A stretch of DNA of 64,000 nucleotides from Candidatus Freyarchaeum deiterrae. Lineage in GTDB: Archaea; Asgardarchaeota; Jordiarchaeia; Jordiarchaeales; Jordiarchaeaceae. The stretch is taken from positions 1,952,001 to 2,016,000 of the forward strand of contig CP147778.1 of NCBI GenBank assembly GCA_037305845.1, given 5' to 3'. Below the pieces are notes generated by a model. That model was given only the letters and a program-made list of their open reading frames with translations. It did no database searches and was not told the DNA's origin. Of the stretch, positions 27,142-42,172 are shown one piece after another (the first letter of the stretch is position 1; every line of letters starts with the position of its first letter). A program made the translations under genes and the position numbers.

Positions 27142-27900
27142 TCAAATTAGTCCTTCTCTGTCAGTAAAAATTCTTTCCAATACGGCGTATAGGTTGTCCA
27201 TTCCATCAAAAGTTAGTGAAGAAACTGGTAATATTTCATTGAATAAACCCATACTGGTTAAAACTTCTCCTAGGTTTATGCTTATCTCTCTGCGAAGACC
27301 AGCCTCCTCTTGATTTATAGCGTTTATCAACTTTTGTGGGTCGCTTATCCATTCTGTGATTTTGTCTATTTCTTCTTCATTAAGAGTGTCTGCTTTGGAT
27401 AGAACATTGATTTGAGGTAAATTAAAGCGGTACTGTACTGAGGCGCTTAGAAGTAAAACACTCACAAAACTGGATGGAGTGCGGCTTAGTAAGGGATCCA
27501 TGAGGTAAACTAAACAACTTTCTTCGCTACCTATCGCTGTTGTAACCAGAGGGCCAGTGCTTCGGAAAGCAAAAAGTTCTAGTTGGCCGGGGGTATCCAC
27601 CAATACATATGTGGGTTTCAATTCCTCGATTTCCTCTTTGAAATCATCGATAAAATTAGCCATCATATCGATACTGGCGATTAGTCCACCGTTGGGTCCT
27701 AGATCATATTTGTCCATAACCTCCTCTAAGTTTACGTAATCTCTAATATCTACGTCAGGTGTGTACGGTAAACGGCGAACACCAGGATCTAGGTTAACGA
27801 GAACTGCGTTAAACTCATTACGAACAAGCCACTCGGAGTAAGCTTTTGTAAGAGTGGACTTTCCGCTTCCCGCTGTTCCAATAAAGAAACTTGTGAACAC
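27142..27900 (-). CDS. GPN-loop GTPase
   Basis: GTAGSGKST, VNLDPG, LGPNGG, DTPGQ.E, SKAD. Confidence 0.93.
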   Translation of the reverse strand: MFTSFFIGTAGSGKSTLTKAYSEWLVRNEFNAVLVNLDPGVRRLPYTPDVDIRDYVNLEEVMDKYDLGPNGGLIASIDMMANFIDDFKEEIEELKPTYVLVDTPGQLELFAFRSTGPLVTTAIGSEESCLVYLMDPLLSRTPSSFVSVLLLSASVQYRFNLPQINVLSKADTLNEEEIDKITEWISDPQKLINAINQEEAGLRREISINLGEVLTSMGLFNEILPVSSLTFDGMDNLYAVLERIFTDREGLI

Positions 27901-28279
27901 CTTTTAAACCTCCAAAATTCACAGATAAAACATAATGCTGTTTGAAGAAATTAGAATATTCATTACGCCTTTTTTTAGACTTTTTTTATTATATACACTT
28001 ATTTTTAAAACAATTTATTACTCATTAATTTTTTCGAAGCCTGATTAGACTTGAACTAATTACTTTTAAAATATTTCCAAATCACACTTGGGAACATGCT
28101 TGTAAAACGATAAAAAATTTTAAAATAAAAACAAAAATCTTGGGATGGTTAATTAGAGGCTAAATATAAAAGAGAAATCGTCTAATCTTTCTCCATCAAC
28201 TAAGGAGCATTATAATAAATCTGGATGATTATCGTGTAGGAGAATTAACTTTCTAAATCATAAAGAGGAGGCCTTTTTT

Positions 28280-33075: not shown

Positions 33076-34080
33076 TTAAGACATTTTAGTTCTTAGTTTA
33101 AGTGGTTTTCCAAGGGATTTGTCGTATACGAAGAGCACTTCCTCGGAATCGAGTCCTATCTCTCCAATTATCGTGTTGTCCTCAATGAACTTGCTTTTGT
33201 AAATCACCCTTATGGGTTCACTTAACCCCAAAGTTACTATAAGGCGGTCTTTGAGTTCCCGTATGGTTTCTTGTTTATCGATCGCGTATTCGATACCTTC
33301 TAGTTTGTATTTGTCGCTACAGATTATGCATTTAGGATTTCTTTCTAGTTTAATTGTTGTAAAGCTTTGGCTCATTCCATCATAAAACAAGTAATTATCA
33401 ATGAGCGGAGATAAGCCAAGTAGTATTTTGATAGTATCTTGTGCTTGGATGCCGCTAAGAACTGCTGTAATAGTTGAGACCGAGGGAAACTTAGACTGTT
33501 CAACTTCAACTTCTAACTTTTCTCTCTTCTTACCTGGTGGTGTGCATGATTTTTGGAATCTCTCACGAGGGAGAAGTGGCTGGCACTCCAGACATGGTGT
33601 TAAATAAGGTATTATGACCTGAATATTACCATACCATCCATACATCCCGCCGTGGACTAAGGGTTTGTTAAGGCTAACACATAAAGAGTTCAGCCAACGT
33701 CTTGCCTCAAAGGTATCAAGTCCGTCAACAATCACATCGCTTTCCTCGTAGTATTTGCGAGGCACGTTAATAATACTCTCATTTCGGTCTATAACTTCAA
33801 CGTTTGGATTAATTTCTTTAAGTTTTTCCGCTGCTACCTTCGCTTTAAATTTGTCAATATCGCTTTCAGTAAATAAAAGCTGACGATTAAGATTAGATAA
33901 TTCAATAGTATCCATGTCTACAAGTATTAGCTTTCCTACTCCAGCTAAAGCCAATAAAGCCGCAACCATTGACCCCAATGCACCGACGCCAGATATGAGG
34001 ACAGTTGATTTCTTAAGTTTGTCCTGATTCCACCCCTCAAGCAGTTCCTGTCGATGATATCTACTGTCAACTTTTTTCAA
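33076..34080 (-). CDS. Ubiquitin-activating enzyme E1-like
   Basis: GVGALGS, D.IELSNLNRQ, CLEC and CIIC Zn sites, candidate catalytic Cys in KSCT, C-terminal ubiquitin-fold-like extension. Confidence 0.9.
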   Translation of the reverse strand: MKKVDSRYHRQELLEGWNQDKLKKSTVLISGVGALGSMVAALLALAGVGKLILVDMDTIELSNLNRQLLFTESDIDKFKAKVAAEKLKEINPNVEVIDRNESIINVPRKYYEESDVIVDGLDTFEARRWLNSLCVSLNKPLVHGGMYGWYGNIQVIIPYLTPCLECQPLLPRERFQKSCTPPGKKREKLEVEVEQSKFPSVSTITAVLSGIQAQDTIKILLGLSPLIDNYLFYDGMSQSFTTIKLERNPKCIICSDKYKLEGIEYAIDKQETIRELKDRLIVTLGLSEPIRVIYKSKFIEDNTIIGEIGLDSEEVLFVYDKSLGKPLKLRTKMS

Positions 34081-34126
34081 GGCTAAACCCTCTTAAAAGG
34101 TATATAGTATGTAGTGGTTAAAAAAA

Positions 34127-34585
34127 TTACTTTCCAAGATTGTTCCAGGTAGCATATTTTTTGACGTGCTCCTTTGCAGTTTTAGAGAAATCATCCAAAT
34201 TTTTGGTCATTTCTTTAGCTGCTAGTGTGTTTAAGGGGGAATGAGGATTTGGATAATTAAGGAGATTTCTTAGGGTTTCTATTACACCCGTTATGCTCAT
34301 GCTAGGTAGCCAATCCTTGCCCAAAATATTTACACACACGTTTTTTTGAAATATGTTGGGATGCCAGATATCAGTATTCCAAACCACTTTTGGGGGCTCA
34401 TAAGGAAATTTTCTTGGGAGGATTATCTCTATTTCAAATACGCCTGACTCGTATATTCCCGTCCCTATAATAAACCCCGTCCACCTTCTCAAGTCTCCAT
34501 CAACTGGGTGAAAAGACGGTTCTTCTTCTTCCATTTGTTTAGCTTCGTATACAAGTCTTGCTTCGTATTCTTCGTCTGATAGAAT
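34127..34585 (-). CDS. Ubiquitin-conjugating enzyme E2
   Basis: FPYEPPKV, WHPNI, catalytic C in NVCVNIL, W.P, PNPHSPLN. Helix 1 lies upstream of the ATG at 34534, implying an ATT start at 34585. Confidence 0.92.
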   Translation of the reverse strand: MLSDEEYEARLVYEAKQMEEEEPSFHPVDGDLRRWTGFIIGTGIYESGVFEIEIILPRKFPYEPPKVVWNTDIWHPNIFQKNVCVNILGKDWLPSMSITGVIETLRNLLNYPNPHSPLNTLAAKEMTKNLDDFSKTAKEHVKKYATWNNLGK

Positions 34586-35063
34586 CTTGATCCCACCGGG
34601 TGCGCATTATTTAATAACTTCCTGAAAGTGGATACTGTCTCGTATCTATAAATTTTTAATGATTCTTAATTAAGAGAGGGAAGAAAGACTTTATAAACTC
34701 GTAGCCAAAAGGCGGAGTATTTTCTCCTTTTTAAATTGAATAATTTCATATAGCCTTTACTAGTACAGAGAGATTTTGGTTGTTTGAACTACGCGTTTTA
34801 GGAGGCGTCTTTCAGACCCCGGGTTAGTTCTTTCTTCGCTTTTCTCAGCGTAGCCAAAGGCTTATTAAAATATTTTAAGCGCCATGCTTTCAATCTTTTT
34901 TAATTTCTATGCCTTTAGGCAACTTTCTCTCTTATCTTTGAGAGTATCTTACCTGATATTTATATTAATTAGAAATTTAAAAACATATTCGGGAGTCGCA
35001 AACTATAAATAGTTTAAAAAAATGATGGTTTTCTTTGCGTTTCAATGAAAAAAGGTAGCGTTT

Positions 35064-35303
35064 TTAGTAGGGTCCTCCCTCAGTTCGGGTAACAAGGTAT
35101 AATTTGTCGTAGGGCTGAACGCCAGCTTTTTCTAGTGTTGTATCGTTTTCGAGTTGCTGGCCTCTGTACACCAGAATTAGAGTTGAGGCAGGTACTCTTT
35201 TTTTCTTAGCTACCTGAGATTTTATGTTCTCTATTCCCGACTCAGGATCAACATCGAACTCCAAAACCTCTCCGCCAATTGCTGAAACTATTTTTACTAT
35301 CAT
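35064..35303 (-). CDS. Eukaryote-like ubiquitin precursor (GG-PY)
   Basis: VDPESGIENIK, LVYRGQQLENDTTL, LYLVTRTEGG then PY; ATG after GGTGA. Confidence 0.9.
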   Translation of the reverse strand: MIVKIVSAIGGEVLEFDVDPESGIENIKSQVAKKKRVPASTLILVYRGQQLENDTTLEKAGVQPYDKLYLVTRTEGGPY

Positions 35304-35308
35304 TTTAC

Positions 35309-35560
35309 TCACCATTTCCTAACTTCTTTAATATCAAGTGGTTTTGAGCAGTTAGGGCAGAAGCCCTTAATCTTTAACCACTCCAATAGATGGTCGCGAT
35401 GTGCCGGGAGTCCACAGAATGGGCAGTAAACTCGTTTCTCATCTTCCCTGATTTTTAGATTACATACTATGCACCTTGCAGGCTTTGAAAAGTCCCATGT
35501 GCCTATAACTTTGACATCGGATACTGTGAATCTTTCAGAGTGGGCTTCCTGCACCTGCAT
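35309..35560 (-). CDS. Small RING-finger protein (putative E3)
   Basis: CIVC-x12-CPFC-x4-H-x2-H..EWL-x5-CPNC; stop lies 5 bp before the ubiquitin start. Confidence 0.87.
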   Translation of the reverse strand: MQVQEAHSERFTVSDVKVIGTWDFSKPARCIVCNLKIREDEKRVYCPFCGLPAHRDHLLEWLKIKGFCPNCSKPLDIKEVRKW

Positions 35561-35844
35561 AACCTCCAATTAGGTGGTATTTAAGTTATACTTAGCATTC
35601 TGTTATTATAATTTTTTTGATTGTGACATTTTTCTACTTTTAAATTCTTTGAGCTTAATTTTTAAAGCAATTTGTGAAATCCTTTTATATTGTAGATTAA
35701 TTTTATTAGAGACATAAGCCTAAATAAAACCAAGAATTACTACTAATCCTCCCATTCGGGAACTTTATTTGGGCAAGTTAAGCTTGTTTGCAAGGCTTAG
35801 ACTGCTTAAACCCTAAAAAAACTTAAGAACCGGTTTCAGGGGCG

Positions 35845-36434: not shown

Positions 36435-38231
36435 TTAACCTATTACTAGTTGGGGTTCCTTTCTAACATATTTTCCTTCGCCTTCAATAGTGTAGGACAA
36501 CGAAATTTCCTGTCCCGGCTCTATTCTCTGGAAGTTCCATGTGAGTATCAACTCGTTAATGTTCTCTGTTACCTTGGGTTGTACTTCTTCTGGTTTCCAC
36601 TCAACCAAATTAAAACCTTGTGGGATAAAGTCTTTTACGGTAACGTTTGTCATGCTTACTTCTCCGGTGTTCACAATAACTAGTGGGACTACGTGTTGCC
36701 CTGCTTTCGCTCCTGGAGATACAGCTTCTTTGTATATCTTAACTGCACGACGAGTGTACTTAATTCCAATTTTTGGAGGTTTGCTTTCCAGCTCCGAGTA
36801 CTCCACGTCAGGACCAGGTTGTGTTGTGTTGCCAGTTGCTCTCAATGGAGTTGGATAACTCTTTTCAGGTTTTGGCTCCCAAGCCATCATTGGGTAAACG
36901 CATTTAACGGTTTGCCCCGGGTTTATCCCTCTCACGAGGCTTTTCATATTCTTGACGAAAACTGTTAATCCATGTCTTACTGTGGAGTTGTCGTCGTTAG
37001 GATTTGTTATAATCTCTATACCTTGAGATAATTCTTTTTCATTCACATAAATTTTTACACGTTCGTGTGCGGGGGGTTTAAAGTCCTCTGGGATAGTATC
37101 GTATATTGTCACCTGATCTAGTGCGGCGCTTCCTATATTTGATATTAAAACCGTTACAGTCATCGGTGTTTTATCATAGGCGTCTACTTGGGCTGGTGTG
37201 AAAGTTTTTTCCGCTAGAATTCTCTCCACTGGAAGCATAGTATCCTCCTTGGTAATCTTAGAATACACGTGGCGGGTTACCTCTTTAACTGCTTTGTAAT
37301 CGATGTTTGTTTCGAAGACGGGCATTGTGGGGCTTTTGACGTTAAACTTGTACTCCCACGATTGTTTTGGAGGAACATCCTTGTTAGGTTCCAAAGAAAG
37401 AAGCTGTTCTTTCTTCTCTCCCTTGATTTGGAAGATTTCCACCTTTAGGAGTCTTTGTAGAAATTCACTCGTGTTCAAAAACTCGATTGTACAATCCCAT
37501 GTTGATGGGTGTGAAGGCGACTCTGATGGTTCTATTGCAAATCTACTATCTGAAATTGCTGTGATGTCCGGGTTTAGCAGTGACCTAGTTCTATCTTTAA
37601 TGTGGTATTCTGCTATAACTTTGCCTGCACCAATTGGTTCTATGGATTCGGCAGTGATTCTTAATTTAACAACCAGAGTGGCGTCGCTTCCTGCTGACAG
37701 TTCAAAATTCTTCCATACGACCTCTCTTGATTCCGATTCAAACTCAGCGGCTCCTGTATTCGGCGGCTCTATTTCTGGATCTCCAAAACCCTTTGGTATA
37801 ACTTTTCGTATTTTTATACTGTCAATATATGTATCAGTTGGGTTGCTGACTGTGATAGTGCAACTTACAGGCATCGGTCTCTTGTACACTAAGGCCCAGT
37901 TAATTTGCTCATCTTCATCACAAGTGTCCACTGTTTCCTTCAATTTGAGAACTGTTTCCTCAACAGGCACATTATACTCTTTCGCCCAATTGTTACCTGC
38001 TAAGACTGCACCAACTGGTATAACGCTCTCTTTCAATGATGTGGTTTCTATGCCTCCGACTCGAATTTCACCGTTCCATATCCTGTTTTTTGAACTCTGG
38101 TTATTAACGGAGATAACTCCTCTTACTTTTAGGCTTTTAATCTCATGTTTCTCGGTTAAAACGCAGTCTTCGTTCTCAGTCACATCCAAGTTTAATTTTA
38201 AACCTTCTGAGCTCACAATTGTTTCCCTCAC
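36435..38231 (-). CDS. Cytoplasmic multi-beta-sandwich protein with N-terminal mu-homology-domain (adaptor mu/delta-COP)-like region
   Basis: LNLDVTE...IKSLKVRGVISV and KIRKVIP...GAAEFESESREVVWK resemble the mu2 C-terminal domain; further DUF11-like repeats; no signal peptide. Confidence 0.6.
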   Translation of the reverse strand: MRETIVSSEGLKLNLDVTENEDCVLTEKHEIKSLKVRGVISVNNQSSKNRIWNGEIRVGGIETTSLKESVIPVGAVLAGNNWAKEYNVPVEETVLKLKETVDTCDEDEQINWALVYKRPMPVSCTITVSNPTDTYIDSIKIRKVIPKGFGDPEIEPPNTGAAEFESESREVVWKNFELSAGSDATLVVKLRITAESIEPIGAGKVIAEYHIKDRTRSLLNPDITAISDSRFAIEPSESPSHPSTWDCTIEFLNTSEFLQRLLKVEIFQIKGEKKEQLLSLEPNKDVPPKQSWEYKFNVKSPTMPVFETNIDYKAVKEVTRHVYSKITKEDTMLPVERILAEKTFTPAQVDAYDKTPMTVTVLISNIGSAALDQVTIYDTIPEDFKPPAHERVKIYVNEKELSQGIEIITNPNDDNSTVRHGLTVFVKNMKSLVRGINPGQTVKCVYPMMAWEPKPEKSYPTPLRATGNTTQPGPDVEYSELESKPPKIGIKYTRRAVKIYKEAVSPGAKAGQHVVPLVIVNTGEVSMTNVTVKDFIPQGFNLVEWKPEEVQPKVTENINELILTWNFQRIEPGQEISLSYTIEGEGKYVRKEPQLVIG

Positions 38232-39388: not shown

Positions 39389-39964
39389 TTGGAAGAAAAA
39401 TCAAATAAAGACAGCTCCTCGCATCGAGAGCCTGTTGATGACGCGTCTCTGGATAAGCAGTTTGACAAAGTTGAAGAAATAACTGTGATTGAACTAGAAG
39501 AACTAGCCGACGCACTAGAGTTCATTTTGGATTTGCAGCCACATGTTTGTGTAATCCGTGGTATCGACTATCCCTGTATACTATGCGAATTAAAATGTGA
39601 CGTCGGGAAATGTCAAGAGATAAAAATAATGCGGGGAAAAGGATTAAAAACGATTAACAGTTCCACACTCTCCCTAAATTTCGAAAAGAGGGACTCGTTT
39701 GAAGAATACTTGATCAGTAAATTAGTTCGAGAGCTAACTCGGGAGAAGCTTAACATTATTGACCCAGAAGAGGGTTACGATATAACATTCTTTTTCAAGC
39801 ATGAAGACCGATGGAGAAAAAATGAAATTATAGTTTTCATACTCGGGCTATTTGACAGAGTAAAAATACTTATGCCTGAAGCTAAGGCGTTAGTAAATAC
39901 CTGGATAAGAAATAAAGTGAAGGGTTTTGAGAGAGAAGAGACTCTTAAAAAAATGAAAGAGTAA
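39389..39964 (+). CDS. ARPC4 (Arp2/3 complex 20 kDa subunit)-like protein
   Basis: INS..S....D..E..L..K..R, P.EGYDI.F, K..I..F, E.K..VN...R match the ARPC4 pattern. Confidence 0.72.
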   Translation: MEEKSNKDSSSHREPVDDASLDKQFDKVEEITVIELEELADALEFILDLQPHVCVIRGIDYPCILCELKCDVGKCQEIKIMRGKGLKTINSSTLSLNFEKRDSFEEYLISKLVRELTREKLNIIDPEEGYDITFFFKHEDRWRKNEIIVFILGLFDRVKILMPEAKALVNTWIRNKVKGFEREETLKKMKE

Positions 39965-40075: not shown

Positions 40076-41347
40076 TTACTCTTCGGGTAGTTTATTCTCA
40101 GAAGCCGAGGCTCCCTCTGTTGCTTTCCCAGTTAGTGCGTTTATTTGCTGCTGTATGGTTCTCATTTCTCCACGAATTCTTGCTCTCTGCGCAGCATACT
40201 CAGCTTTCTGTAAAGCTCCAGCCTGGTACCTTTTAGTAATATAGTCTAACTGGCTCCCAAGAGAGCGCGACCTCGACTCTAAGCTCTCTAACTCTTCGCG
40301 TTTGGCTGCATCAGTCAGTAGAGGTGAGGTTGCTGGTATCGAACGTGTGCTCGTACGAATTGTTTCAGAAATCTTTCCTTGAGAAAGCACCCTCGCTGCA
40401 AAGTCTCTAAATTCATCGAGAAACACATCAAATCTCTTTCTCAGAGTAACAACTTCACTCATTAACTTGTCAATTTCAGGCGTGTAGGCAGCAGCTATTG
40501 ATTGCGTTGTTTTTGCCCTGCCTTGCAAAGGTCTTGTAGCCAGAACTGGTTTAACTCTTTCCTCAACCAACTCCTCCTCTTCCTCCTCCTGTGGAGCACT
40601 TGATTCTGTTACCTCTTCTTCCACTACTTTTTTAGAGGCTGGTTTGGTGGGGGCGACTTTGGGTTTCGAAGGTATAACCACCCATTTAAATATATTTTTT
40701 AACAGAACCATATTTTGTGAAGTATTAAGTCCACCCATTATTCGATCCCTGAACATTTCATACGATCCTAGGGCAACAACTTTTCCGTTCCCATAATTAG
40801 AAACAGCCAAAACAGGGGCATCGGGCGGCTGTGCAGTTCTGCTTGTGATAGCTAATGCTTCTGCTTCTCCCACGAGTTTTATGCTGCAGCCCGCGGAATA
40901 AGCTAATTCTGATAGTCCTTCGGTTACAGGGTGATCCTTAAATTTCGTAATTTTGGGAAGGTTTTCCATACCTAGATTTTGTCTCTCATCAAATAACTGA
41001 TTATTCTGAAATGATACTCCAAAATTCTCGGCTAACTCGTTAAGATTGGTTCTCAGTCCGGGATCACCGCCCGCATGGCTTAATAAAACAACTCCACCAC
41101 CTCTGGAAACAAAATCTAAAACAGTTCTGATTTCTGCGGGTTGTATCTTAGACTGATCTGGACAAGGAAAAACTAACGCATTGAAATCCTTCAATTTATC
41201 CAGGGTGATTGGAAAATCAACAAATCTTATGCTCTGAATACCCTCAGTTTCCAATACTCCTTTGACAGCTGAATAACTAGTAGTGATACGTCCGCGTTCC
41301 TTTTGCGTTTCATCAAAAAGGACACGCCACTTAATTTCAGCCAACAA
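40076..41347 (-). CDS. GIFT (GldG/IFT52)-domain protein with low-complexity linker and C-terminal helical hairpin
   Basis: VLFDE..KE, ITLDKL, FVSRGGGV.LL..GG....TNLN.LAENFGV; TTG start after GGAGGT; no signal peptide. Confidence 0.72.
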   Translation of the reverse strand: MLAEIKWRVLFDETQKERGRITTSYSAVKGVLETEGIQSIRFVDFPITLDKLKDFNALVFPCPDQSKIQPAEIRTVLDFVSRGGGVVLLSHAGGDPGLRTNLNELAENFGVSFQNNQLFDERQNLGMENLPKITKFKDHPVTEGLSELAYSAGCSIKLVGEAEALAITSRTAQPPDAPVLAVSNYGNGKVVALGSYEMFRDRIMGGLNTSQNMVLLKNIFKWVVIPSKPKVAPTKPASKKVVEEEVTESSAPQEEEEEELVEERVKPVLATRPLQGRAKTTQSIAAAYTPEIDKLMSEVVTLRKRFDVFLDEFRDFAARVLSQGKISETIRTSTRSIPATSPLLTDAAKREELESLESRSRSLGSQLDYITKRYQAGALQKAEYAAQRARIRGEMRTIQQQINALTGKATEGASASENKLPEE

Positions 41348-41538
41348 TAAACCTCCTATCATCGGATGAGTAAACACTTTCAACCTATTTTTCAAAAGGC
41401 TCTAAAAAAATATTTTAGAACTAACCTTTTAACCTTTTTTTCTATTCAGGTATTTAAGAACCTCAAATAATATTTTGTCGCTCATAATTAATAAAATTTT
41501 ACTATTTTTACGCAATATATTTCCATGGTGAATCCCAA

Positions 41539-41961
41539 TCAAAGGTCTATAAGGAAAAGACCTGTAGCTTCATCCTCGCTACGATTAATTTTTCTACTGA
41601 TTTCCATCAAAAATATTTCACAAGTAATAGACACAATACACCCATTTAAAACATGCCCACCTAATGCTCTTCCCTCCCTATCACCAACCACTATGTGGGC
41701 GTGAACTGTGGCTTTCCCCTCGCGATAGGAGATGTTCCCAATACAAGAAACCACTTCCAAATCAGATTTCAATTTTATGGATTTATATTTGTCTTTATCG
41801 AAAAAGCCTATATTAGCTTCGGATAAGGCTCCAATAGCGCTGAAAAATCCGGAAATCAAATCATATTTTTTGGCCAGCGTCTCAAGAGAATCCAGTAAAT
41901 CCTCTCCCTTTTCCAGTTTCGCTACAATAATTCTTTTACTGGAAGATTCTATTGATTTCAT
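41539..41961 (-). CDS. PPC/DUF296 domain protein
   Basis: LEKGEDL, AIGAL, EVVS..GNI, HAH, GGHV. Confidence 0.9.
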   Translation of the reverse strand: MKSIESSSKRIIVAKLEKGEDLLDSLETLAKKYDLISGFFSAIGALSEANIGFFDKDKYKSIKLKSDLEVVSCIGNISYREGKATVHAHIVVGDREGRALGGHVLNGCIVSITCEIFLMEISRKINRSEDEATGLFLIDL

Positions 41962-42172
41962 CTCCTTCACCTTTCGCGACGTAGAGTGCAACTTATTAAT
42001 TTTTAGGCATTTCTTATTTTTTAATTGAATAATTTCTTTACCATTCGGTAGACTTATTTATGTTTTTACACTTGAATAATTTGATTTTATAATTCTGTTT
42101 AAATGGCGCCCTCAAATTAAAACGAATCCTAATAAATAGCACCCGTCAAGAGGTAAAAGCTGGGAGAAAAAC

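Follow-up and report, generated by a model that had tools for sequence, protein, structure and literature searches.

A gene on the reverse strand of the DNA stretch analysed here, a 64,000-nucleotide window of Candidatus Freyarchaeum deiterrae (C1:1952001-2016000 of the closed 3.58-Mb genome), may well encode a cytosolic modular scaffold of a near-universal family of Asgard archaea; we assign this interpretation a probability of about 50%. The predicted protein carries an N-terminal GIFT domain, as does the intraflagellar transport (IFT) protein IFT52, followed by a disordered linker, a long helix and a C-terminal helical hairpin of a class that includes the headpiece of endosomal sorting complex required for transport I (ESCRT-I). 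The family as such is well defined, but it does not amount to evidence of intraflagellar transport in archaea or of a novel ESCRT-I complex.

The gene and its product

The locus had been singled out by a sequence-only reading of the window, and its open reading frame (ORF) is indeed a genuine gene. The longest ORF at this position spans 40076..41395 (-). Translation most likely starts at the TTG codon at 41344 (or at 41347, as the sequence-only reading had it), because a GGAGGT motif lies 6 bases upstream of the TTG, the gene call in the database comprises 422 amino acids, and all homologues begin right at the first β-strand. In a database protein search, the closest relatives of the protein carried the names Freyarchaeota or Jordarchaeia (Jord/Frey in the following).

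The domain layout was derived from an AlphaFold2 monomer model of the whole protein (78 homologues in the alignment), which reached a mean per-residue confidence (pLDDT) of 82.7. Window coordinates of the gene and its parts are as follows; residue numbers are those of the 422-residue protein.

40076..41344 (-), whole gene for a soluble GIFT-linker-helix-hairpin protein, 422 codons plus stop; 100% identical to the database gene call of 422 amino acids
41351..41356 (-), GGAGGT ribosome-binding site upstream of the TTG, read from the sequence
40670..41344 (-), residues 1-225, GIFT domain with flavodoxin-like fold; Pfam IFT52_GIFT (51 bits), AlphaFold2 pLDDT >90, Foldseek match to the IFT52 N-domain
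40499..40669 (-), residues 226-282, disordered linker, Pro/Lys-rich and then poly-Glu; pLDDT 39-52, length and sequence varying within the family
40382..40498 (-), residues 283-321, single long helix, moderately conserved in the family alignment; AlphaFold2 pLDDT ~90
40313..40381 (-), residues 322-344, second, short disordered spacer (AlphaFold2)
40130..40312 (-), residues 345-405, C-terminal antiparallel helical hairpin (helices 345-374 and 380-405); AlphaFold2 pLDDT 94-96, family conservation, hhalign
40079..40129 (-), acidic disordered C-terminal extension, present among the aligned sequences only in those of Jord/Frey origin

Neither a signal peptide nor a transmembrane segment was found in the protein when its sequence and the N-termini of the family were inspected, as had been stated for the secretion signal in the sequence-only reading. 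The linker described there, Pro/Lys-rich and then poly-Glu, likewise agrees with the disorder that AlphaFold2 predicts for residues 226-282.

The GIFT head and its relation to IFT52

Pfam assigned the N-terminal part of the protein to IFT52_GIFT (51.3 bits, E 1.1e-13, cut-off 27.2), a model that matched all 78 of 78 family members. DUF4350 also passed its cut-off (32.8 bits versus 30.4), and ABC_transp_aux and ThuA both scored below theirs on this protein. When all PDB sequences were searched with phmmer, IFT52 alone was recovered (5fms at 7e-9, 5fmr and 8bd7), and the alignment to the PDB entries reproduced the motif matches to IFT52 that the sequence-only reading had given for this domain. 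The same relationship was seen at the level of structure. A Foldseek search returned the N-domains of IFT52 first (5fmr/5fms; E 1.7e-18 to 1e-15, TM-scores of 0.79-0.88, 22% identity), nine orders of magnitude ahead of the runners-up STM3548, OST48/Wbp1 and ThuA-like proteins (~1e-9). IFT52 (OSM-6/BLD1; PF23355; 5FMR, 5FMS, 8BD7 chain B) and the Asgard protein thus belong to the same GIFT family and fold. Both contain the motifs GG(D/E)...N...FG and GS..F.D, both are cytosolic, and they agree in having an extended low-complexity linker and a helical C-terminus behind the head.

Closeness to IFT52 was judged by profile bit scores against the IFT52 chains of the PDB, in place of a tree with eukaryotic IFT52. 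A profile of the GIFT-hairpin family gave 84.5 bits for Chlamydomonas IFT52 and 64.9 bits for mouse IFT52. Run exhaustively over 1.84 billion representative proteins, it matched 3285 of them at E ≤0.001, and at least 150 prokaryotic representatives attained at least 119.6 bits, the score of the 150th best match. Judged by their sequences and a few names, the best 150 of the 3285 matches look prokaryotic; they comprise membrane-anchored, zinc-ribbon, TPR and giant multidomain architectures, and the few with a named source come from Helarchaeales, Thermoprotei, Bathyarchaeota and Methanofastidiosia. A word-indexed protein search with the GIFT protein returned Asgard proteins only. Moreover, a profile built from 30 prokaryotic GIFT proteins outside the family (the few with a named source being from Bathyarchaeota, Methanofastidiosia and Helarchaeales) scored IFT52 at 112.8 bits, above the score given by the GIFT-hairpin family. 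Neighbours in the ESM Atlas that carry IFT52_GIFT include many bacterial clusters, an observation to be taken as a lead only.

The domains that follow GIFT in IFT52 were also sought. IFT52_central (PF23352) did not match the protein at E values up to 1, and its best match in the closed genome (E 0.24) lies elsewhere; the C-terminal IFT46-binding domain, Itf52_C (PF21178), had no match across the closed genome at E up to 1. The tail of the Asgard protein is instead a helical hairpin. From the higher-scoring prokaryotic proteins, the better score of the profile of other GIFT proteins and the lack of both IFT52 domains in the genome, it follows that sequence comparison does not support a special link between the GIFT-hairpin family and IFT52, and nothing in it favours a descent of IFT52 from this family. 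On these scores IFT52 is not the nearest relative of the domain: with 84.5 bits for IFT52 versus 119.6 bits for the 150th best prokaryotic representative, the domain essentially groups with prokaryotic proteins, many of which are nearer to it than IFT52 is.

These nearest sequence neighbours are prokaryotic GIFT proteins with many different architectures. The GIFT domain is also shared by the prokaryotic GldG/ABC_transp_aux (PF09822) and DUF4350 (PF14258) proteins and the archaeal arCOG01314. GldG and arCOG01314 proteins are secreted or membrane-anchored, and archaeal DUF4350 proteins have been described as membrane-anchored (PMC5898192). The Asgard family, in contrast, is soluble and cytosolic, has the linker-helix-hairpin tail and forms a separate group in the GIFT tree with 99% support (see below). 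Across the family, many polar residues of the head are nearly invariant, namely those in the motifs CPD, GGD, ND-Q, GCS and GSYEMFRD.

The same genome contains a second, weaker GIFT paralogue of 263 amino acids (C1:1716607-1717398, (-)), in which a GIFT-like domain precedes a C-terminal CxxC...CxxC zinc ribbon. Its IFT52_GIFT score of 21.6 bits is under the cut-off.

The C-terminal hairpin

The conserved signature of the tail across the family reads LExKLxS..L..FI.KK..sG.i....Y.Kq..kL..D. Individual Pfam models did not capture it. Vps23_core (PF09454) matched neither the protein nor the gene in the genome-wide search, and it was not among the top 25 families across the 78 members. SHOCT (PF09851) gave no hit on the protein and weak ones on 8 of 78 relatives (best E 0.007), and no CdvA match (PF18822) reached its cut-off on the protein. 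Alignment of profiles with hhalign was more informative (probability and score given for each comparison):

Tail and 16 Asgard Vps23-like steadiness boxes: 91.9%, score 36.0, E 6.8e-7, 57 columns, in register
Tail and 100 column shuffles of the steadiness-box alignment: score 10.0±2.2, maximum 22
Tail and reversed steadiness-box alignment: 0.23%, score 10.0
Tail and an ordinary coiled-coil protein encoded in the window: 0.3%, score 11.5
Tail and Asgard Vps28 N-terminal hairpins: 91.6%, score 37.1
Tail and terminal hairpin of the CdvA-like/SHOCT-like zinc-ribbon family: 94.2%, score 38.9
Steadiness boxes and Vps28 N-terminal hairpins: 95.6%, score 46.6
Steadiness boxes and CdvA-like hairpin: 30%, score 22.8

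Judged by these profiles, the tail goes beyond what a generic coiled coil would show. It appears to belong to a class of hairpins that includes those of the ESCRT-I headpiece (the Vps23 steadiness box and the Vps28 N-terminus) and the CdvA-like/SHOCT-like hairpins, and it is assignable to no single one of them. The resemblance to the steadiness box of Vps23/TSG101 or to a SHOCT hairpin, proposed from the sequence, thus stands at the profile level (36.0 versus 10.0±2.2 for the shuffles), but it does not extend to a match with Vps23_core, and Vps28-N and CdvA-like hairpins are equally close. The opposite outcome, a tail matching only generic SHOCT or coiled-coil sequences, was not observed either, given the 92-94% to three hairpin families as compared to 0.3% for the ordinary coiled coil.

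Searches of individual genomes with the tail profile ranked these relatives differently. In the host genome the first match after the protein itself was a CdvA-like protein (E 0.0024); Vps28 took rank 6 (E 0.08), and the Vps23-like protein appeared around rank 25 (E 6). In genome G308 the best non-self match was the Pfam-verified Vps28/Vps23_core hairpin, in G005 the ORF that carries the Vps28 match of this genome, and in G307 a 509-amino-acid protein with a weak Vps23_core match, and the Vps23-like gene came third in G114. BLASTP of the tail against the Vps23-like protein of the host found nothing (E 8.7). Among the best 60 of 67 matches of the tail profile to PDB sequences (E up to 10) there were only chance matches, such as influenza HA2 and the Rpt1 coiled coil, with no ESCRT, SHOCT or CdvA protein.

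With respect to structure, a Foldseek search with the tail alone placed Vps23-C and Vps28-N in the lead at E 0.3 or worse, none being found at E ≤0.001. The VIA exhaustive fold search gave Z scores of 9.8 for Vps23, 9.6 for the cytoplasmic domain of MK-D1 OST1 and 9.6 for the CdvA filament, a ranking that amounts to a tie because 77 chains have Z ≥8. The Vps23/TSG101 steadiness box (PF09454) is a hairpin of the same length and geometry as the tail (Z 9.8, root-mean-square deviation of 2.4 Å over 65 residues). ESCRT-I hairpins also share with it the signature L..L..K(F/Y)..G.(I/L)....Y.K, and hhalign gives ~92% to the Asgard Vps23 and Vps28 profiles. The CdvA-like/SHOCT-like hairpins (PF18822, PF09851), which provide the best non-self match in the host genome and share in the tie through the CdvA filament, differ in their arrangement: they stand in tandem behind a zinc ribbon, as opposed to a single hairpin behind a GIFT head.

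The CdvA-like protein of the host (C1:1098813-1099601, (+); 263 amino acids) has its zinc ribbon at the N-terminus and, in addition, three Y..GE(I/V)....Y hairpins in tandem, and it passes the Pfam CdvA-like coiled-coil model (36 bits, cut-off 30). Of five further Asgard genomes inspected, three (G114, G307 and G308) encode orthologues of ~258-277 amino acids. Other Asgard proteins as well end in a steadiness-box-like hairpin, among them one at L150:130-1656 (G307:C4) and frames of 580-724 amino acids in L137, L145, L146, L149 and L151; one of all these proteins has a weak GRAM match. As their N-terminal parts are unrelated, Asgard archaea seem to use the hairpin as a C-terminal module that is portable between proteins. 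The OST1 domain listed above (PDB 8WHN) comes from MK-D1 OST1/ribophorin I, of which it is the cytoplasmic part that binds ribosomes, and shows 20% identity to the tail over 66 residues; this entry is absent from the best 60 of the 67 PDB sequence matches of the tail profile. OST48, in which eukaryotes have their other GIFT domain, is part of the complex that contains OST1.

Distribution and modularity of the family

The family profile matched 350 of the 400 Asgard genomes searched at E ≤1e-10. Coverage was 84 of 90 among the high-quality genomes and 76 of 85 at the level of genera. Two to five matches per genome are common, and both cultured organisms, P. syntrophicum MK-D1 and L. ossiferum, encode the family. 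A tree was calculated from 196 GIFT domains, eukaryotic IFT52 being outside the sample. It contains a split with 99% support between 45 other GIFT proteins and a group of 151 cytosolic Asgard sequences that comprises all 92 tail-bearing proteins; the gene described here falls in a Jord/Frey clade with 100% support. As tail-bearing sequences occur in several deep branches of the 151-member group, the tail is probably old within it and was repeatedly lost or replaced. Where present, the hairpin is located close to the end of the protein: in 103 of the 104 relatives with a tail, at most 40 residues separate it from the C-terminus. Other relatives carry a Ras-like GTPase, TPR repeats, zinc ribbons or membrane anchors in place of the tail, a pattern that would be expected of a GIFT head acting as a transferable binding unit. 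One such protein, P0087 (471 amino acids), has a GIFT head (residues 6-116 and beyond) fused to a C-terminal small GTPase of the Ras/Arf/Roc type (residues 295-454), which replaces the hairpin.

Databases already label members automatically as 'IFT52 GIFT domain-containing'. In the searchable literature, Asgard archaea occurred together with IFT52, the GIFT domain or GldG in no paper, a negative result that does not extend to the papers pairing 'intraflagellar transport' with 'Asgard archaea'. As far as the retrieved part of the literature on 'GIFT domain' goes, it appears confined to eukaryotic IFT, oligosaccharyltransferase (OST) or site-1 protease.

Proposed function as a modular scaffold

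In the interpretation that we favour, the GIFT head would serve as a binding platform, by analogy with IFT52, whose GIFT domain contacts the TPRs of IFT88 and the coiled coil of IFT57/38 (PMC9753473). The terminal hairpin would pack with hairpins of like class into a small helical bundle, made up either of copies of the protein itself (homo-oligomer) or of the protein and a second hairpin protein (hetero-assembly). Whatever is bound by the GIFT head would then be tethered to an oligomeric or partner-bound core. Several observations weigh against this proposal. The near-invariant polar residues would also fit a ligand-binding or catalytic pocket in place of a pure protein-docking surface; the fold matches of the hairpin are ties among the 77 chains with Z ≥8; and the gene context varies between lineages and provides no consistent functional clue.

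Gene neighbourhood and a possible link to nucleotide sugars

The genes of interest around the GIFT gene in the window are:

39389..39964 (+), convergent neighbour, ARPC4-like (Pfam ARPC4); this pairing was found only in the 8 Jord/Frey loci
41539..41991 (-), upstream co-oriented neighbour, PCC (DUF296) domain protein (Pfam; synteny in Frey loci)
27145..27903 (-), orthologue of a GPN-loop GTPase, 12 kb from the GIFT gene here and two genes upstream of it in most other Asgard lineages
33076-35569 (-), ubiquitin operon with genes for E1, E2, a ubiquitin-like protein ending in GGPY and a RING protein, separated from the GIFT gene by 4.5 kb that contain four genes in mixed orientation

With strands given relative to GIFT (+), the order in Jord/Frey loci is PolB (-), PCC (+), GIFT (+), ARPC4-like (-), metallo-beta-lactamase fold (+), mu-homology (+), a coiled-coil protein, and the RING/ubiquitin/E2/E1 operon. 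The distance to the ubiquitin operon, previously estimated at about 5 kb, was thus nearly correct; however, genes of the size of ubiquitin, E2 and E1 were seen near the GIFT gene only in Jord/Frey loci, and a ubiquitin linkage was rejected as a family-wide feature. The neighbour at 36435-38231 (-) has a weak match to adaptor mu-homology and a DUF11 match. The mu-homology and ARPC4-like genes are of the eukaryotic-signature type; Jord/Frey loci are the only ones in which they cluster with GIFT.

A different arrangement prevails in the other Asgard lineages. In 67 of 79 loci the GIFT gene lies directly downstream of a co-oriented gene for an NTP-transferase resembling GDP-mannose pyrophosphorylase (GMPP), and in 59 of 79 loci a co-oriented GPN-loop GTPase gene is located just upstream of the latter. 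This arrangement points to another function, in which the GIFT head would bind or process a sugar or sugar nucleotide in nucleotide-sugar or glycosylation metabolism. The strongly conserved polar patch is compatible with such a role, as is the class-I glutamine-amidotransferase-like fold, which is common to OST48, ThuA-like and glycosidase-associated domains. However, a gap of ~110-155 nucleotides separates the GIFT gene from the upstream gene, so that GIFT may have a promoter of its own, and the linkage is lost in the host genome, whose nearest NTP-transferase homologue is distant, and in its relatives. We consider this function unlikely. Taken together, the gene context offers two lineage-specific hints and no firm function; because it differs between lineages, a consistent functional clue is missing.

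A longer conserved string of genes was observed in loci named Thor, Hod and Hermod and in others (e.g., L085:4953-11410). It runs from a gene for a 125-amino-acid protein through a DNA methylase gene on the opposite strand, genes for proteins of 127 and 326 amino acids, the GPN-loop GTPase gene and that for the GMPP-like NTP-transferase with LbH to the GIFT gene. Neither Pfam nor NCBIfam gave a match for the 326-, 127- and 125-amino-acid neighbours, and BLAST found no counterpart of them in the host genome.

Relation to ESCRT-I and to intraflagellar transport

The true UEV-steadiness-box protein of the host (265 amino acids) and Vps28 are encoded by adjoining genes at ~C1:1894254-1895754, 98 kb away from the GIFT gene. 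The distance is smaller in three Jordarchaeales genomes, where ~5.5 kb with PolB in between separate the GIFT gene from the Vps23-like/Vps28 pair. Mod_r/Vps37 was not detectable in the closed host genome, and hence the third position of the headpiece could be vacant. In the Asgard family f31, VPS28 was matched at 1e-4 in none of 35 high-quality genomes. The five f31 genomes tested further had no steadiness-box match at 0.1 and only sub-threshold matches to the VPS28 N-terminus. All five encode the GIFT domain plus tail, four in frames of ~394 amino acids and one in a frame of 465 amino acids with a homologous part of ~390. Since f31 retains the GIFT-plus-tail protein without detectable Vps28 or steadiness box, an obligate partnership with Vps28 is unlikely, and the tail may have divergent partners in f31. 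Four f31 genomes in which Vps28 went undetected contain an ORF of 250-280 amino acids with a sub-threshold match to the VPS28 N-terminal hairpin alone (G335:C1:436969-437178, G389:C26:178804-178974, G314:C21:164748-164936 and G312:C1:362297-362467), each located 12-17 kb from the GIFT gene.

These data bear on the possibility that the protein is an alternative ESCRT-I subunit, in which the hairpin would be a true steadiness box packing with Vps28 (and with Vps23, if it took the Vps37 position, or in place of Vps23) and the GIFT head would stand for UEV. Such a subunit would account for the alignment of the hairpin profile with Asgard steadiness boxes and Vps28-N, for the Vps28- or Vps23-type matches that lead in G308 and G005 and come third in G114, and for the rank of Vps23-C as top, if tied, fold match. 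The potentially vacant Vps37 position and the proximity to the Vps23-like/Vps28 pair in Jordarchaeales fit as well. Against it stand the host-genome ranking led by a CdvA-like/SHOCT-like protein, the missing Vps23_core match, the 98-kb distance in the host together with the intervening PolB in Jordarchaeales, and the persistence of GIFT plus tail in f31. Furthermore, steadiness boxes are nearer to Vps28-N (46.6) than the tail is to either (36-37). On balance, an ESCRT-I subunit of this kind is rather improbable. Of the TSG101-like architecture with GIFT in place of UEV that the sequence-only reading had inferred, the order head-linker-helix-hairpin, which Vps23 shares, is retained; the remainder is not, as the hairpin is not specific to Vps23, the ESCRT-I genes are remote and the tail persists where Vps28 goes undetected. 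The protein also lacks the UEV (inactive E2) domain of Vps23, is unlinked to ESCRT genes in the host genome, and has a tail equally similar to non-ESCRT hairpins.

In a more far-reaching variant, the hairpin would be a genuine member of the ESCRT-I headpiece family that docks on Vps28 or on a CdvA-like hairpin, forming an Asgard ESCRT-I-type assembly with a cargo-facing GIFT head that was later used in IFT52 and OST48; this we regard as decidedly improbable.

Finally, it is very improbable that the protein is an archaeal forerunner of IFT52, i.e., a proto-IFT scaffold whose GIFT head, proline-rich middle and helical C-terminus work as in IFT-B1: its Asgard host, the similar layout, the one relative with a fused Ras-like GTPase and the standing of IFT52 as sole PDB sequence match and by far best fold match are outweighed by the higher bit scores of at least 150 prokaryotic representatives, the better IFT52 score obtained with other prokaryotic GIFT proteins, the many bacterial clusters with IFT52_GIFT, the failure to find IFT52_central and Itf52_C in the closed genome, and a tail that is a hairpin and not an IFT46-binding domain.

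Implications

Eukaryotes have GIFT domains in two machines of ancient origin, in the IFT-B core through IFT52 and in oligosaccharyltransferase through OST48. The present work adds a soluble GIFT family that is found in about nine out of ten Asgard genomes searched and in which a tail hairpin of the ESCRT-I/CdvA class is conserved, whereas its prokaryotic relatives are known as secreted or membrane-anchored proteins. If docking of the hairpin on Vps28 or a CdvA-like hairpin were true, the family would represent an unrecognised class of adaptors at the root of eukaryotic trafficking scaffolds. The partners of the tail, once found, would show whether the hairpin serves assembly in general and is older than ESCRT-I, and also what is bound by the cytosolic GIFT head. 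Both questions matter for understanding how archaeal parts came to form the scaffolds of eukaryotes.

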